This document shows, in pieces, positions 1 through 4,595 of a DNA stretch of 4,595 bases. The DNA is from a virus (lineage: Duplodnaviria; Heunggongvirae; Uroviricota; Caudoviricetes), in the IMG/VR virus record IMGVR_UViG_2740892271_000008; one strand, written 5' to 3'. Below the pieces are notes generated by a model. That model was not told where the DNA came from, made no database searches, and saw only the letters and a list, made by a program, of their open reading frames with translations. A program made the position numbers and the translations under genes. Position 1 is the stretch's first letter. Every line of letters starts with the position of its first letter.

Positions 1-41
1 GCTTTGAACTCTTTAGAGTAACGTTGGGTTTTTCTGCTCAT
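1..41 (-). CDS. IS3-family transposase OrfA, N-terminal fragment (continues beyond window start)
   Basis: ATG at 41..39 with AGGAG 6 nt upstream; translation MSRKTQRYSKEFKA resembles the start of the HTH-containing OrfA of IS3-family elements. Confidence 0.65.
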   Translation of the reverse strand, partial: MSRKTQRYSKEFK

Positions 42-105
42 TATTAGCTCCTTCTGATGCCATTCTATTTCAGGAAGGAGTGTCCGTTAAACTCAGGCTA
101 CCTCA
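1..105 (-). mobile_element. Left-flanking IS3-family insertion sequence, terminal ~105 bp (inverted-repeat end plus start of orfA); element body lies beyond the window start
   Basis: Minus strand shows AGGAG, a 6-nt spacer, then ATG at 41..39 encoding MSRKTQRYSKEFKA, a typical IS3-family OrfA N-terminus. Inferred terminal repeat on the minus strand, outer end at 105: TGAGGTAGCCTGAGTTTAACGGACACTCC. It matches the repeat at 4456..4485 at 20 of 29 aligned positions, with identical TGAGGT tip and GGACAC at positions 21-26. The distance from the end to the orfA ATG (64 nt) fits my recollection of IS3. Exact boundary is +/- a few nt. Confidence 0.7.
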
Positions 106-782
106 GGTTATTCGCTTCTGGGCATGGGCGGATCAACAAATGATAGACGGTAATGCAGATTGTAACGCTCGCGGCGTTACAAAAAGTGCAATAGATCGCA
201 TCACTTTTATGTCTGGTTTTGCTGATGCGTTAATTCAGGTTGGATGGCTGGTCGAAAATGACGGAGGGCTTTCTCTACCTAACTTTGAACGTCATAACGG
301 AAAAAGCTCTAAAAAAAACGGGCGGTTACAAACGAGCGAGTAACAAAAATACGCGAACTGAAACGAAAAGGTAACGCTGCCAGCGTTACACAAACGGATC
401 AAAAAGCGTTACCAGAGGAAGAGGAAGAGGAAGATCTAAATACTGATCTCCCCCTCGCCAAAAACGAGCGTCTAAAAAATTCGAGCCGGAGGCTATTGAG
501 CTGCCCGATTGGTTGCCGGAAACACTCTGGCATGAGTGGGTCCGGTTCAGACAGGCATTGCGAAAACCGATTCGAACGGAGCAGGGCGCTAACGGGGCGA
601 TACGGGAACTGGAAAAATTCCGTCAGCAGGGTTTTACACCTGAGCAGGTGATTCGACACAGCATCGCCAATGAATACCAGGGCCTGTTCGCGCCGAAAGG
701 TGTTCGGCCTGAGACGTTGCTCCGACAGGTTAACACCGTCTCGTTGCCGGACAGTGCGATCCCGCCAGGCTTCAGGGGGTAA
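106..782 (+). pseudogene. Phage replication initiation protein (lambda O / YdaU-like), 5-prime truncated by the IS and frame-disrupted
   Basis: Coding potential runs through three frames in succession: frame of ORF 80..343 up to the A8 run at 311..318, then the -1 frame (KKRAVTNERVTKIRELKRKG...EEEEEEDLNTDLPLAKNERLK) up to the A6 run at 474..479, then the frame of ORF 513..782 (KKFEPEAIELPDWLPETLWHEWVRFRQ...). Stops in the other frames (310-312, 341-343, 372-374, 444-446) are consistent with exactly these two switch points. Sits immediately upstream of the DnaC-like gene as in lambdoid replication modules. Bases 80..105 of the tracked ORF are IS-derived. Confidence 0.6.
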
Positions 783-788
783 CGGACC

Positions 789-1535
789 ATGAAAAATATT
801 GCGACAGGCGGCGTTCTGGAACGCATCCGCCGACTGACCCCGCCACATGTAACCGCCCCATTCAGAACGGTAGCGGAGTGGCGCGAGTGGCAACTTGCTG
901 AAGGCCAGAAACGTAGCGAGGAGATCAACCGCCTGAATCGCCAGTTGCGGGTGGAAAAAATTCTGAATCGCTCAGGCATCCAGCCGTTGCACCGTAAATG
1001 CTCGTTTGCGAATTACCAGGTGCAGAACGACGGCCAGCGATACGCGTTAAGCCAGGCGAAATCCATCGCCGATGAACTGATGACCGGGTGTACAAATTTT
1101 GCGTTCAGCGGAAAACCTGGTACCGGGAAGAATCACTTAGCGGCAGCTATCGGGAATCGCCTGCTGAAAGACGGTCAGACAGTGATTGTGGTTACCGTGG
1201 CTGATGTTATGAGCGCCCTGCACGCCAGCTATGACGACGGGCAGTCAGGCGAAAAATTTTTGCGGGAGCTGTGCGAAGTGGATCTGCTGGTTCTTGATGA
1301 AATTGGCATTCAGCGCGAGACGAAAAACGAGCAGGTGGTGCTGCACCAGATTGTTGATCGCCGGACAGCGTCGATGCGCAGCGTGGGGATGCTGACAAAC
1401 CTGAACTATGAGGTGATGAAAACATTGCTCGGCGAGCGGGTGATGGATCGCATGGTCATGAACGGCGGGCGCTGGGTGAATTTTAACTGGGAGAGCTGGC
1501 GTCCGAATGTTAGCCATTCGAGGGTTGTTAAGTAG
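789..1535 (+). CDS. DnaC-like AAA+ replicative helicase loader (prophage paralog of host DnaC; resembles what I recall of Rac YdaV)
   Basis: 248 aa; Walker A FSGKPGTGKNHLAAAIG and Walker B DLLVLDEIG; co-linear similarity to E. coli DnaC as I recall it (NRSGIQPLHRKCSF, MLTNLN, LLGERVMDRM, NFNWESW). ATG at 789 follows the upstream stop by 6 nt. Confidence 0.92.
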   Translation: MKNIATGGVLERIRRLTPPHVTAPFRTVAEWREWQLAEGQKRSEEINRLNRQLRVEKILNRSGIQPLHRKCSFANYQVQNDGQRYALSQAKSIADELMTGCTNFAFSGKPGTGKNHLAAAIGNRLLKDGQTVIVVTVADVMSALHASYDDGQSGEKFLRELCEVDLLVLDEIGIQRETKNEQVVLHQIVDRRTASMRSVGMLTNLNYEVMKTLLGERVMDRMVMNGGRWVNFNWESWRPNVSHSRVVK

Positions 1536-1549
1536 TTTCAGGAGGATTT

Positions 1550-1972
1550 ATGGCGAAACCTTTTACTCCCGAACAGCGGGAAGAACTGAAGACGCGAATT
1601 GTGGAACTCGTGCATCAGGACGGTCGGGTCACGATTCGGCAGTTGTCAGATGAAACAGGTATCAGTCGTGCGTCTGTCGGTCGCTTATGCATAGAACTGG
1701 TCGCAAGTGGTGATGTATATAATTCTGGCTACGGCTTATTCCCGTCTGAACAGGCTCGCAAGGACTGGCAAAGCGCCCGCAAAAAACTCTCGAGAGTAAA
1801 GGTGAGGAAACCGGTTGTTGTTGATCCGGACCTTATCTGGTCATTACCTGACGGAGAAATACGCCGCTACGACAGGCGCCTGAATATAATCTGTCGCGAG
1901 TGCCGGAAGAGCGAAGCTATGCAGCGTGTACTGGCTTTCTATCAGGGTAATTTTCAGGAGGCGATACTGTGA
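1550..1972 (+). CDS. Hypothetical phage protein with a predicted N-terminal helix-turn-helix / winged-helix region and a C-terminal CxxC
   Basis: 140 aa ORF; AGGAGG at 1540..1545 with a 4-nt spacer to ATG 1550; starts 15 nt after the DnaC-like stop (operon-like). HTH-like segment VTIRQLSDETGISRASVGRL; motif CRECRK near the C-terminus. Confidence 0.7.
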   Translation: MAKPFTPEQREELKTRIVELVHQDGRVTIRQLSDETGISRASVGRLCIELVASGDVYNSGYGLFPSEQARKDWQSARKKLSRVKVRKPVVVDPDLIWSLPDGEIRRYDRRLNIICRECRKSEAMQRVLAFYQGNFQEAIL

Positions 1973-2386
1973 ATGAAATTAGCTATCAGGCTTCAATTAC
2001 CGCTGGCATTCGCATCAAAGGAGAGGAGCATGGAAATAAAACCAGAAGATGAGTTAAGCAATATCGTTTTATTTCCGGTAAAAGAGGATGACCCTCGTAA
2101 TCAGGTTAATTTTCTTTATGAGCCATCGGAAAGACCATATTGCCATCACGCCTCTGTACGGGTTGACGAAAAAGAGCGTCAGGTCCGCTGTAAAATCTGC
2201 GGTGCGGTTGTGGAGCCGTTTGACTGGATGCTCTCTGTGGCAAAAAGAGAAACCAGACTGGCAGATGATGTAAGGCTATTGCGCCAGGAGGAACAGGAAA
2301 GGCGGAGAAATATAGAAAAGCTGATACAGATTGAGCGTAACGCGAAAGCGCGGATACGCAGGGCGACAAAATCCAGAACTGAATAA
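1973..2386 (+). CDS. Hypothetical phage protein, putative zinc-ribbon (C-HH ... CxxC) with a basic coiled-coil-like tail; alternative start at ATG 2030
   Basis: ATG 1973 abuts the upstream TGA (1970..1972) with AGGAGG at 1956..1961. A second in-frame ATG at 2030 has a purine-rich Shine-Dalgarno (GGAGAGGAG) 3-4 nt upstream and may be the true start. Motifs PYCHHASVRV and CKICG; C-terminus rich in R/E/K. Confidence 0.65.
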   Translation: MKLAIRLQLPLAFASKERSMEIKPEDELSNIVLFPVKEDDPRNQVNFLYEPSERPYCHHASVRVDEKERQVRCKICGAVVEPFDWMLSVAKRETRLADDVRLLRQEEQERRRNIEKLIQIERNAKARIRRATKSRTE

Positions 2387-2533
2387 TTAAATTTAGCACT
2401 GTTAAAAATTTAATCCTTAACCGGAGGGATTTCTGCACCCTCAAATCATCAGGAGACCACCCGAAAGGGCGGGGAGCAGTCACACATCTGTTTCCGATAG
2501 CCCCGTTCTAATGCTACACTCTTTGATATTTTT

Positions 2534-3220
2534 ATGACCCCAATAAACATATTTATGACAGTTGCTGATTTCAAACGGCCCAAATTGGAGCTCCCAAACG
2601 GGGCAAACAAACTACTACTGCACTCTTGCTGTGCTCCATGTTCCGGTGAGGTGATGGAGGCGCTTCAGGCCTCGGGAATCGACTACACCATCTTTTTCTA
2701 CAACCCGAACATTCATCCTCAGAAAGAGTATTTAATTCGTAAGGATGAGAATATTCGCTTTGCTGAACAACACGGCGTGCCGTTTATTGATGCTGATTAC
2801 GACACAGACAACTGGTTTGAACGAGCCAAAGGAATGGAATGGGAGCCCGAACGAGGGATCCGTTGCACCATGTGTTTTGACATGCGTTTTGAGCGGACAG
2901 CGCTGTACGCCGCTGAAAATGGTTTCAGTGTGATCAGCAGTTCACTGGGCATTTCACGCTGGAAAAATATGCAGCAGGTTAACGACTGTGGGCGGCGAGC
3001 CGTCGCGCATTATCCGGGCATGGTGTACTGGGATTATAACTGGCGCAAGCAGGGCGGCTCGTCCCGTATGATTGAAATCAGCAAGCGCGAAAAATTCTAT
3101 CAGCAGGAATATTGTGGCTGTGTGTATTCTCTGCGCGATACCAATCTACACCGCAAATCTCAGGGACGCCCTCTTATCAAAATTGGTCAACTCCACTACG
3201 GTAAAGAAGAGAAGGAGTGA
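2534..3220 (+). CDS. queH: QueH-type epoxyqueuosine reductase homolog (DUF208 family)
   Basis: 228 aa. Motifs I recognise from the DUF208/QueH family: [11 protein letters not shown] near the N-terminus, [38 protein letters not shown]. Start uncertain (ATG 2534 or 2555; neither has a clear Shine-Dalgarno). Separated from the upstream ORF by 147 nt, suggesting its own transcription unit. Confidence 0.85.
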
Positions 3221-3289
3221 TTTTATGGGGCACCTTTCTGATTGATTTCATATTGGCGAGGTAAGTAGAATGACTGCGGGTGCTTGAGG

Positions 3290-3326
3290 CTATCTGCTTC
3301 AGGCATGAACACCAAAAGGCAGATAG
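3290..3326. repeat. Perfect 8-bp inverted repeat (CTATCTGC / GCAGATAG) with a 21-nt spacer; not followed by a T-run on either strand
   Basis: Directly read: 3290..3297 and 3319..3326 are reverse complements. Confidence 0.5.
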
Positions 3327-3339
3327 AGAAAAGCCCCAG

Positions 3340-3374
3340 TTAACATTACGCGTCCGGCAAGACGCTTAACATTA
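3340..3374. repeat. Direct repeat TTAACATTA (3340..3348 and 3366..3374) flanking a small palindrome GCGTC-N6-GACGC, at the left edge of the N gap
   Basis: Directly read from the sequence. Confidence 0.5.
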
Positions 3375-3381
3375 ATCTGAG

Positions 3382-3626
3382 NNNNNNNNNNNNNNNNNNN
3401 NNNNNNNNNNNNNNNNNNNNNNNNNNNNNNNNNNNNNNNNNNNNNNNNNNNNNNNNNNNNNNNNNNNNNNNNNNNNNNNNNNNNNNNNNNNNNNNNNNNN
3501 NNNNNNNNNNNNNNNNNNNNNNNNNNNNNNNNNNNNNNNNNNNNNNNNNNNNNNNNNNNNNNNNNNNNNNNNNNNNNNNNNNNNNNNNNNNNNNNNNNNN
3601 NNNNNNNNNNNNNNNNNNNNNNNNNN
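3382..3626. other. Run of 245 N: assembly gap or masked sequence; content unknown
   Basis: Directly visible; the ORF-track entries across it (3346..3726, 3372..3659 minus) are artefacts of translating N. Confidence 1.
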
Positions 3627-3648
3627 CATCCTCAACGCACCCGCACTT

Positions 3649-3693
3649 AACCCGCCCATCGCTGTGATCTCTCAGCGTTTCGGCGGGTTTTTT
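3649..3693 (+). terminator. Rho-independent terminator (two-tier GC-rich hairpin followed by a T-run)
   Basis: Outer stem CCCGCC (3651..3656) with GGCGGG (3682..3687); inner stem CGCTG (3660..3664) with CAGCG (3673..3677); 8-nt loop; then TTTTTT (3688..3693) and GTTGTTT. The T-run is on the + strand only. Confidence 0.6.
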
Positions 3694-3713
3694 GTTGTTT
3701 ATTTCCGGTGAAT

Positions 3714-3741
3714 TTGATTCGCGCACCTTCGCAGATAGAAT
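3714..3741 (+). promoter_or_regulatory. Candidate sigma70 promoter for the downstream small ORF and YbcN-like gene
   Basis: TTGATT (3714..3719), 16-nt spacer, TAGAAT (3736..3741); lies just downstream of the terminator and about 80 nt upstream of ATG 3823. Confidence 0.4.
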
Positions 3742-3822
3742 CGACTCACTTAAGTAGCGCGCAGGGAGAAGAGGGATGGACCCCGAACAGGGGAGAGCTA
3801 TTTATCTGGAAGGATTCTGAAG

Positions 3823-4110
3823 ATGAAAATCGAAGAATTGCGTGAAATTTTTAGTGAAAATGGCCTCTATGCTGTGCGCGTTGAGAATGGAGCGATTGTC
3901 AGCCATTGCCGCATTAGATGTTTGCAATCTCAACAAAGGAAGAGCGGTGCTGTGTTATTTTATTTTTGTAATGGACTTCTGACGGACGGTTTTATTTTGC
4001 GTGAGGACGAATTTGTCACATCATTACGGGTTTTGAAAGAGATTGGTTTTAAGGCTGGTTTTCTGCTTTTGCTGAAGAATAAACTCATCTACAATCTTGA
4101 GCAGGATTGA
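3823..4110 (+). CDS. Hypothetical small protein (95 aa), AT-rich; coding status uncertain
   Basis: ATG 3823 with GGAAGGA about 8 nt upstream; stop TGA 4108..4110. About 40% GC by my hand count over the first 180 nt, versus about 57% in a DnaC-like sample. Contains four GGTTTT repeats. No family recognised. Confidence 0.4.
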   Translation: MKIEELREIFSENGLYAVRVENGAIVSHCRIRCLQSQQRKSGAVLFYFCNGLLTDGFILREDEFVTSLRVLKEIGFKAGFLLLLKNKLIYNLEQD

Positions 4111-4148
4111 ACTCCTGCTGTGTAACACCGTGCCACCGGAGAAAGCCG

Positions 4149-4455
4149 ATGGCACATATACAACTGGTCAAACAAACCTCTTCCGGATTACTTCTCCCGG
4201 CGACGCCGGAGAGTTGCGATTTTCTGCATCAAATCAAAATAGGTGAGTGGATACACGCAGACTTTAAGCGTGTGTGTAACTACGCATTCCACAAGCGTTT
4301 TTTCAAACTCCTGCAACTGGGTTTCGATTACTGGACTCCGGTCGGTGGGGCGATCACGCCTCGCGAACGAAAACTGGTGTCCGGTTTCGTTGATTACCTG
4401 TGTGAATCAGTAGGCCGGGAACATACGCCAGCTCTGAGCGAAGCCGCAGAGCAAT
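4149..4455 (+). pseudogene. Phage protein resembling the YbcN-like / DUF1367 family, 3-prime truncated by IS insertion
   Basis: ATG 4149 with GGAG 7 nt upstream. Protein MAHIQLVKQTSSGLLLPATPESCDFLHQIKIGEWIHADFKRVCNYAFHKRFFKLLQLGFDYWTPV... fits my recollection of YbcN-like proteins from lambdoid nin regions (family assignment from memory, moderate certainty). The frame runs into the IS terminal repeat at 4456, so the last 15 codons of tracked ORF 4107..4502 are IS-derived. Confidence 0.55.
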
Positions 4456-4595
4456 TGAGGTGTACTGGCAATAGCGGACACTACCATTTGTTCTTTTTTT
4501 AAGCAGCCATCTGATGATATTTTTCCCTGAAGGCTGCCGGGGAGATATTCCCCAGACGAGAGTGACGACGCTGACGATTGTAGAAAATCTCAATG
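4456..4595 (-). mobile_element. Right-flanking IS3-family insertion sequence, terminal 140 bp (inverted-repeat end plus orfB 3-prime end); element body lies beyond the window end
   Basis: Plus-strand 4456..4485 TGAGGTGTACTGGCAATAGCGGACACTACC pairs with the inferred repeat at the left edge. The orfB stop lies 43 nt inside the end. Internal GCAATAG-GGACAC resembles the IS3 terminus as I recall it. Confidence 0.75.
4499..4595 (-). CDS. IS3-family transposase OrfB, C-terminal fragment (start beyond window end)
   Basis: Minus-strand frame beginning at 4594 translates IEIFYNRQRRHSRLGNISPAAFREKYHQMAA then stop (TAA, plus-strand 4499..4501). The YN-RRH-LG-SP-F pattern is the conserved C-terminal tail of IS3-family transposases. 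Confidence 0.8.
   Translation of the reverse strand, partial: IEIFYNRQRRHSRLGNISPAAFREKYHQMAA

Follow-up and report, generated by a model that had tools for sequence, protein, structure and literature searches.

Genes and IS600 ends in the window

The window, meaning the whole 4,595-nt stretch analysed here, holds 4350 bp of phage genes with part of an insertion sequence at either edge (Table 1). The original prediction had taken both edges for ends of one IS3-family element in the same orientation, on the minus strand. That element is IS600: BLAST matched window 1..105 at 100% over 105/105 nt (E = 1e-47) and window 4456..4595 at 100% over 140/140 nt (E = 6e-67) to records annotated as IS600. 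Our reference was the intact 1264-bp copy on the Shigella flexneri plasmid pWR501 (L004 377..1640), to whose two ends the window edges, compared as reverse complement, are 100% identical; another pWR501 copy (L003), with IS2 in its right tip and a misleading 124/140 match, was set aside. At the left edge the IRL tip lies at window 105 and the orfA ATG at 41..39 (IS nt 65), and at the right edge the IRR tip lies at 4456 and the orfB stop at 4499. The element continues off the contig at both edges, with 1019 bp of each IS600 copy lying off it, and the full-length structure was read from identical resolved genomes. The predicted likeness of the two terminal repeats was borne out: IRL and IRR (inverted repeat I3) are identical at 20/29 positions, both start with TGAGGT, and GGACAC is common to both. 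IS600 and prophage meet precisely at 105|106 and 4455|4456, since IS-free relatives match window 105..4455 only.

Table 1. Features of the window, with positions in window coordinates
Feature	Position	Strand	Basis
Left IS600 fragment (IS nt 1..105): IRL and first 22 codons of orfA	1..105	-	exact match to L004 377..481
GGT, inner copy of the left IS600 3-bp target-site duplication	106..108		flanks overlap at L001 4002..4004
Phage replication-initiator gene, 3' part, pseudogene (262 aa when intact)	106..782	+	alignment to L001 3898..4686
Two perfect GTAACGC-N5-GCGTTAC palindromes in the initiator gene	162..180 and 371..389		I5 inverted repeat, D5 direct repeat
ydaV, DnaC/IstB-like AAA+ helicase-loader, 248 aa, intact	789..1535	+	annotation; PF01695 and PF00308 on identical product
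DUF977 family gene, 140 aa	1550..1972	+	PF06163
Hypothetical gene, 118 aa (137 aa from upstream ATG at 1973)	2030..2386	+	no Pfam match on record
queH (epoxyqueuosine reductase, DUF208), 221 aa (228 aa from 2534), intact	2555..3220	+	annotation; PF02677
sok/hok type I toxin-antitoxin locus	3278..3626	+	Rfam RF01794 sok; hokD annotated in L001; PF01848
Rem-family ORF, 95 aa	3823..4110	+	PF27490 on identical product
DUF1367 (YbcN-like) gene, 5' 102 codons, cut by right IS600	4149..4455	+	PF07105
Right IS600 fragment (IS nt 1125..1264): orfB end and IRR	4456..4595	-	exact match to L004 1501..1640

Within the stretch matched in H3 the initiator is annotated as a 'phage replication initiator YdaU family protein', and it was aligned with its intact counterpart as a reconstruction with the IS removed. 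The left IS had been thought to remove the 5' end of this gene, which it does not: IS600 splits the gene, whose first 105 nt are found directly on the far side of the element, with a GGT duplication. The fragment in the window bears two further frameshift lesions, a gain of 2 bp (A8 for A6 at 311..318) and a loss of 10 bp near position 448. Its two GTAACGC-N5-GCGTTAC palindromes, against 0.01 expected (200 shuffles), are probably origin or initiator-binding sites.

The cargo was predicted to be a DnaC-like gene, two small ORFs and QueH; all are present, queH as a prophage accessory gene, but the list left out the sok/hok locus and the 95-aa Rem-family ORF. The sok family match spans window 3278..3453 (117 bits, at L008 9100..9275). 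A run of 245 N at window 3382..3626 stands in place of the mok/hok coding part and corresponds to 275 nt at L008 9204..9478; L008, otherwise identical to the window, carries an ORF with the Hok/Gef-family domain (PF01848) at 9213..9425. Disruption of genes by the IS is real, as first described, but that description missed both the additional initiator frameshifts and the run of N. At the right edge IS600 does cut the YbcN-like (DUF1367) gene, an intact copy of which encodes 199 aa at L001 8083..8682. The truncated ORF continues across the junction into the tip of the IS, with its stop at 4502, and encodes 117 aa specific to the junction.

Full IS600 copies and relatives of the prophage

All unmasked bases of the window are identical to megabase-scale Shigella sonnei contigs, including the chromosomes of S. 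sonnei 75/02 (L009, CP019689; PMC5447701) and S. sonnei 2015C-3566 (L008, CP022457; PMC6456863), and the exact strings of window 1..3381 and 3627..4595 were found in L005, L006, L008, L009 and L011. We infer from this identity that the window's own strain probably has the same arrangement. The same 4350 bp are flanked by two full direct IS600 copies in six loci (L005, L006, L008, L009, L010 and L012); in L008 the copies, both 1264 bp and on the minus strand, occupy 4664..5927 and 10308..11571. At both sites the resolved copies have ORFs with PF01527 (HTH_Tnp_1) and PF00665 (rve), and some records annotate a single 385-aa product for IS600. They are ordinary IS600, at least 99.6% identical to the pWR501 copy and not distinct from it in kind, and the two differ from each other by 1-2 SNPs (IS nt 789 and/or 126). 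The two edges belong to one IS type, and in these contigs both copies are complete IS600.

The left copy is a simple IS600 insertion in the initiator gene, in its ancestral context: the uninterrupted L001 reads GGGAAGGTTATTCG, while L008 reads GGGAAGGT[IS600]GGTTATTCG, i.e. with a 3-bp GGT duplication. The search for target-site duplications thus succeeded at this copy only; the right copy has none, with AAT inside and GTT outside, as a rearrangement at this site explains. Its outer flank in L008 corresponds to L081 3246->2574, the 3' part of the integrase gene of the same prophage in inverted orientation, and the right copy is therefore a rearrangement joint to the prophage's own integrase. 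Beyond the inverted integrase part lie a 749-bp gap in ybhA, which is truncated, and then modC. Also in L008, a piece of the late region (L081 17999..18537) is inverted at 499..1038, and a partial IS600 in direct orientation occupies 2280..2991. In L006 and L013 we observed deletions flush with the end of the left IS600 copy. Homologous recombination of the partial IS600 with the left copy was considered as the route to the L013 deletion and rejected, since nt 49 of the partial copy is followed directly by the IRR tip of the full copy, so that no hybrid single copy is present.

The module also occurs elsewhere without either IS, as had been proposed for a check. Its closest such relatives are prophages at ybhA-modC in E. 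coli FDAARGOS_944 (99.6% identity) and FDAARGOS_943 (99.4%; NZ_CP065613.1 and NZ_CP065615.1 for the pair), over window 105..4455. These share with the window the gene order initiator, ydaV, DUF977, hypothetical, queH, hokD, rem, DUF1367, but have no IS600 insertions, intact initiator and DUF1367 genes, and the normal order int-xis...Q-tRNAs-lysis, whereas the window lineage is inverted, deleted and IS-ridden. Both insertion sites are likewise uninterrupted in S. flexneri SFBU1023. The full order in the IS-free relative L081 is int, xis, recE, cI, cro, ydaT, initiator, ydaV ... DUF1133 (Q-like), tRNAs, holin, lysozyme, which presents immunity, replication, antiterminator and lysis functions with the integrase at one end, as in a lambdoid/Rac-type prophage. 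The element is very probably a defective Rac/lambdoid-type prophage beside ybhA-modC, of which the window holds part of the early region, from replication to DUF1367.

Origin of the IS-flanked structure

We consider the window to be a short-read assembly contig from a Shigella sonnei-type chromosome, made up of 4.35 kb of decaying prophage between two IS600 copies (probability about 0.9). The contig stops 105 and 140 nt into the IS600 copies, very probably because the assembler cannot cross a multicopy element. That contig ends might simply have broken in a repeated IS was one of the original suggestions, and it holds. Of the two ORFs specific to the junctions, one is recorded in 521 collection blocks and the other in 481, and the longest contig carrying them is 2-5 kb in 440/521 and 397/481 blocks (~83%); contig breaking in the multicopy IS is therefore recurrent. 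The pattern is that of repeat-induced breaks in short-read Shigella assemblies, with ends ~100-140 nt inside a multicopy IS and the same junction ORFs on 2-5 kb contigs in ~400 blocks, and we found no difference from it; such breaks at IS are the limitation that motivated ISMapper-based surveys (PMC7373316). The two edge lengths are unequal (105 and 140 nt), which a single fixed k-mer overlap alone does not explain.

The two IS600 copies would stem from separate events. On the left, IS600 inserted in the initiator gene and generated the GGT duplication; on the right, it would have inserted into, or recombined at, DUF1367, at what is now the rearrangement joint. The early-region block is inverted relative to both the integrase side and the lysis side, and large parts of the prophage have been lost. 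As to order and mechanism, we infer homologous recombination between IS600 copies or transposase-mediated events for the inversion and deletions. None of the loci examined contains the reciprocal joint of the inversion, in which IS600 IRL and AAT would be followed by the remainder of DUF1367 (GGCTACCTCA+AAT+ATCTGAATACAGTTGCG). A scan of genome contigs with the 29-nt IS600 IRL returned 67 stretches, mostly from three complete genomes, and in none of them was either of the two junctions or the reciprocal joint present. The partial IS600 at L008 2280..2991 is a doubtful candidate for the reciprocal copy, because it is in direct orientation and not inverted as a simple two-copy inversion predicts.

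That direct orientation, together with the lack of a reciprocal joint within 10 kb and the L006 and L013 deletions that start exactly at an IS600 end, leaves some room for another route to the right joint. It may have formed by deletion or by one-ended intramolecular transposition of IS600 from DUF1367 into the integrase gene, or as part of a much larger chromosomal inversion. This possibility, which we hold to be the less likely one, would replace only the local inversion by homologous recombination between two IS600 copies and would keep the rest of the scheme. Deletion alone, however, does not turn the integrase and modC round with respect to the segment. With the segment in inverted orientation to both of its sides, an inversion must have taken place at some step.

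A quite different idea is that the unit formed by IS600, the 4.35 kb and IS600 is a functional composite transposon, which would move by its two outermost repeats (IRR on the left, IRL on the right) and carry queH, hok/sok and ydaV as cargo; the first description of the locus had raised a composite-transposon-like module as one option. Like Tn10 and Tn5, it has two copies of one IS around a few kb of unrelated genes, and these copies, complete, near-identical and in the same orientation, do bracket the segment in megabase-scale contigs. Moreover, in L011 the unit appears inside the ydaV-like gene of another prophage. Against this, GGT is duplicated around the left IS alone and the flank there is the ancestral one, so that the interior cannot have shifted with respect to this copy. 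Outside the unit, the left flank ends in GGT and the right one begins with GTT, so there is no duplication of the whole, and the right outer flank is the integrase of the same prophage. The only alternative contexts are L007 and L011, both draft scaffolds, in which IS copies end at internal nt 1254, 127 and 137 and 254 bp of the paralogous ydaV are duplicated around the unit. Such internal joins and the 254-bp duplication indicate mis-scaffolding, and we therefore rejected transposition into a second prophage for these two, which look like scaffolding chimeras; the unit was found at no independent site with intact outer inverted repeats. Without an outer duplication, with one copy inserted on its own and the other a rearrangement joint, and with no bona fide second location known, the structure departs from Tn10 and Tn5, and a functional composite transposon is very improbable.

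Equally improbable is that the window represents a circular molecule, e.g. an excision product, or a circularly permuted artefact, composed of the 4.35-kb segment and one IS600. The contig ends are the two complementary halves of a single type of IS, similarly oriented, and would close on one 1264-bp IS, and the deletions flush with the left copy in L006 and L013 imply that this copy takes an active part in rearrangement. In six long contigs (0.98-4.9 Mb), however, the copies are separate, can be told apart by SNPs and differ in what lies outside them. These two complete copies, 1-2 SNPs apart, exclude the artefact of a single IS. A circle would also carry a thrice-broken initiator gene and so be unlikely to replicate, and the same short contig recurs in hundreds of assemblies, which is what simple collapse of a repeat would produce. 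In principle the segment could be excised if the IS600 copies recombined, but no excision was observed; a single IS600 joining ...GGGAAGGT to GTTCGGCC... is what the deletion product would look like. There is only a slight chance that the block with queH, hok/sok and ydaV could loop out between the direct IS600 copies and then persist or re-insert as a translocatable unit. If true, a gene for queuosine salvage would travel from one Shigella replicon to another together with an addiction module.

Significance of the IS600-flanked prophage segment

The reading we favour, a contig of decaying prophage broken in two IS600 copies, bears out the original view that IS activity has remodelled this prophage, as seen in the left insertion, the right rearrangement joint and the inverted integrase flank. 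In all likelihood the segment came to lie between IS copies as a side effect of prophage decay driven by IS, and it is not a transposing unit. IS600 has expanded in all Shigella species, and its expansion, with gene disruption, deletions and rearrangements, is documented there (PMC7373316); the IS-flanked array is an ordinary, already documented outcome of that expansion and no new mobile unit.

Where both ends of a contig lie ~100-140 nt within the two ends of a single IS, annotation pipelines should call a composite transposon only after a closed genome has been checked for target-site duplications. Both junctions occur in hundreds of S. sonnei assemblies and are missing from the relatives examined in S. 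flexneri and E. coli, so the locus could be of use as a lineage marker. Otherwise the window is of little import beyond bookkeeping, a textbook case of short-read assemblies being broken, and prophages eroded, as IS elements expand in Shigella.

Two IS600 copies and a recurrent contig break

Both edges of the window are exact fragments of IS600: the reverse complement of the left edge equals nt 1..105, and that of the right edge nt 1125..1264, of the intact 1264-bp reference copy from Shigella flexneri plasmid pWR501 (L004 377..1640). In a BLAST search of the plasmid collection each edge aligned along its entire length, at 100% identity, to features annotated as IS600 (E = 1e-47 left, 6e-67 right). 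The original prediction of two same-orientation ends of one IS type is thus confirmed, and its count for the terminal inverted repeats was exact, 20 of 29 positions being the same in IRL (left) and IRR (right), with TGAGGT at the start and GGACAC at 21-26 in both. The two fragments share the minus-strand orientation, which makes the copies direct repeats; the interior is faced by the IRL of the left copy and the IRR of the right.

Features of the window (positions are those of the whole contig)
Feature	Position	Strand	Length	Remark
Left edge	1..105	minus	105 nt	IS600 fragment
Left-junction ORF	80..343			
Interior	106..4455		4350 nt	includes the N run
Palindromes in initiator gene	162..180, 371..389		19 bp each	GTAACGC-N5-GCGTTAC
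A8 tract	311..318		8 nt	A6 in intact gene
GTTAC/GTAAC half-sites	about 324..344, 404..412			
GAGGAA x3	415..432			acidic-linker repeat
Deletion	near 448		10 bp	between two TCCCCCT repeats
queH	2555..3220			intact
sok match	3278..3453			Rfam, 117 bits
N run	3382..3626		245 nt	over mok/hok
Right edge	4456..4595	minus	140 nt	IS600 fragment

As judged from sequence, the IS-flanked arrangement is both a real structure and an assembly effect. Two full 1264-bp minus-strand copies lie in 0.98-4.9 Mb contigs of Shigella sonnei-type loci (L005, L006, L008, L009, L010 and L012), among them S. sonnei 2015C-3566 (L008, CP022457; PMC6456863), with copies at 4664..5927 and 10308..11571, and the chromosome of S. 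sonnei 75/02 (L009, CP019689; PMC5447701). Aligned as had been proposed, the left and right full copies are of one type and differ at IS nt 789 and/or 126, and are therefore distinct, resolved copies; a circularly permuted artefact of a single IS is excluded for these long-contig genomes. Window 1..3381 and 3627..4595 are exact strings in L005, L006, L008, L009 and the draft scaffold L011. The suggestion that the contig ends broke in a repeated IS also holds. The cut DUF1367 ORF runs on into the IS tip, giving a right-junction-specific product of 117 aa. Exact-sequence look-up in the public collection returned this product from 521 blocks; by the longest contig that bears it, 440 blocks fall in the 2-5 kb range and 16 exceed 1 Mb. 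Of the 481 blocks with the left-junction ORF, 397 are in the 2-5 kb range by the same measure. Recurrence of one short contig in hundreds of draft assemblies thus marks a break within a multicopy repeat.

The prophage early region and its split initiator gene

Megablast against complete E. coli genomes placed window 105..4455 in FDAARGOS_944 (99.6% identity) and FDAARGOS_943 (99.4%), with no IS at either interior boundary in either genome; the module does, as was to be checked, occur elsewhere without flanking IS. The annotated order in these relatives is cI-like repressor, cro, ydaT, a 262-aa replication initiator, ydaV (DnaC/IstB-like), DUF977, a hypothetical gene, queH, hokD, a 95-aa ORF, DUF1367, DUF1364, DUF1133 (Q-like), four tRNAs and holin-lysozyme-lysis protein, with integrase and excisionase far left, adjoining ybhA-modC. 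Sequence comparison identifies the interior as early-region DNA from a Rac/lambdoid-type prophage, and the Pfam families on record for identical products (IstB_IS21/Bac_DnaA, DUF977, QueH, HOK_GEF, Rem, DUF1367) agree with the annotation. queH encodes an epoxyqueuosine reductase and is an accessory gene lying between hok/sok and the replication genes of the prophage; it is at the same position in many E. coli prophages, recurring among the megablast matches. The original prediction did not mention the N run, which in otherwise identical genomes is 275 nt with the mok/hok toxin coding region (L008 9204..9478); the sok match (L008 9100..9275) reaches into it. Masking, an estimated scaffold gap or a true deletion may account for the 30-nt shortfall.

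At the left copy, uninterrupted GGGAAGGTTATTCG of the IS-free relative FDAARGOS_944 (L001) becomes GGGAAGGT[IS600]GGTTATTCG, with flanks overlapping by GGT (L001 4002..4004); on this alignment the left copy is a simple insertion with a 3-bp duplication, GGT. Contrary to the original claim, the initiator gene does not lose its 5' end to this IS: it is split rather than truncated, nt 1..105 being intact on the far side. When IS600 and one GGT were taken out in silico, the reconstruction differed from the intact gene of FDAARGOS_944 by the A8 tract and the 10-bp deletion, each shifting the frame; together with the IS600 split, the initiator gene thus carries three inactivating lesions. The palindromes within this gene are perfect (0.01 expected by chance) and are probably origin or initiator-binding sites. 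Along with the half-sites and the GAGGAA repeat, they look like a candidate phage origin lying within its own initiator gene, the arrangement known from lambda O.

The inverted block and the composite-transposon reading

At the right copy AAT ends the inner flank and GTT starts the outer one, so that of the 3-4 bp target-site duplications looked for, GGT is found at the left copy and none at the right. The outer flank corresponds, in inverted orientation, to L081 3246->2574 of the IS-free relative, comprising the 3' 456 nt (152 codons) of the prophage's own integrase gene and 216 nt downstream. Past this fragment, at L008 12244/12245, 749 bp of ybhA are missing from the S. sonnei contigs relative to FDAARGOS_944 (L081 1825..2573), followed by modC-modB. 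A late-region piece (L081 17999..18537) is also inverted, at L008 499..1038. Given both inverted pieces, the early-region block has the opposite orientation to the sequence on either side, with the right IS600 placed precisely at one of the inversion joints. The locus has lost int-5'/xis/recE and DUF1367-3'/Q/tRNAs. Recombination between IS600 copies, with deletions afterwards, is the proposed route to the present locus; the reciprocal inversion joint was found in none of the fetched loci, and a partial IS600 close by is oriented wrongly for an inversion partner.

The same IS on both sides gives the block the composite-transposon-like architecture originally predicted, but the functional marks of such a module are missing: the outer ends of the whole unit carry no duplication (GGT vs GTT), and the copies have independent origins. 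Because the left IS600 has its own duplication in ancestral context and the right is a rearrangement joint, a composite transposon is not supported. Draft scaffolds L007 (10308..11488) and L011 (4636..4674 and 11445..11447), from assemblies GCA_001258575.1 and GCA_001253355.1, seemingly place the unit within or beside a second prophage. Movement there was rejected: IS600 is cut internally, at nt 137 where L007 joins the second prophage and at nt 1254 and 127 in L011, and 254 bp of that prophage's paralogous ydaV are duplicated around the unit. These joins probably represent chimeras produced by scaffolding or gap filling in the public assemblies. We consider it very improbable that the block occasionally loops out as a translocatable unit.

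Strain variation and Shigella IS expansion

In two of the loci compared, L006 (2516..4664) and L013, deletions begin precisely where the left copy ends in its IRR; they take the cI-cro-ydaT side, with different end points. In L013 (CP022459.1, 5363..8220) a third, inverted IS600 and a 58-nt IRL fragment replace ydaV-DUF977-hypothetical. Erosion of the locus, as these deletions indicate, is still going on and differs from strain to strain. In S. flexneri SFBU1023 this prophage stretch is present without interruption at either insertion site, and both IS600 insertions are therefore lineage-specific.

A scan of genome contigs for the IS600 IRL gave 67 IRL-bearing stretches, 27 of them in CP178302.1 (E. 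coli ECMA0423, loci L016..L077). NZ_CP065615.1 (FDAARGOS_943) was matched at 32 places in the megablast search and has IS1 insertions in this prophage. Both genomes, labelled E. coli, have Shigella-like IS600 loads and may be EIEC or Shigella-like lineages. The exact IRL also occurs in Streptococcus sanguinis KO9 (L034, a 547-bp contig) and Streptomyces sp. UG1 NODE_135 (L038, 1380 bp, coverage 1.3); its presence on such tiny, low-coverage Gram-positive contigs is almost certainly due to contaminating reads from Shigella or E. coli.

Five ISs (IS1, IS2, IS4, IS600 and IS911) are expanded in all Shigella species, and reference chromosomes of the genus have 229-348 IS insertions each; genes are disrupted by these insertions, which also mediate deletions and rearrangements, and their analysis has been limited by short reads (PMC7373316). 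That IS activity remodelled this prophage, as predicted, is borne out by the split initiator with its GGT duplication, the cut DUF1367 and the IS600 on the inversion joint. All findings here fit that documented and already known expansion.
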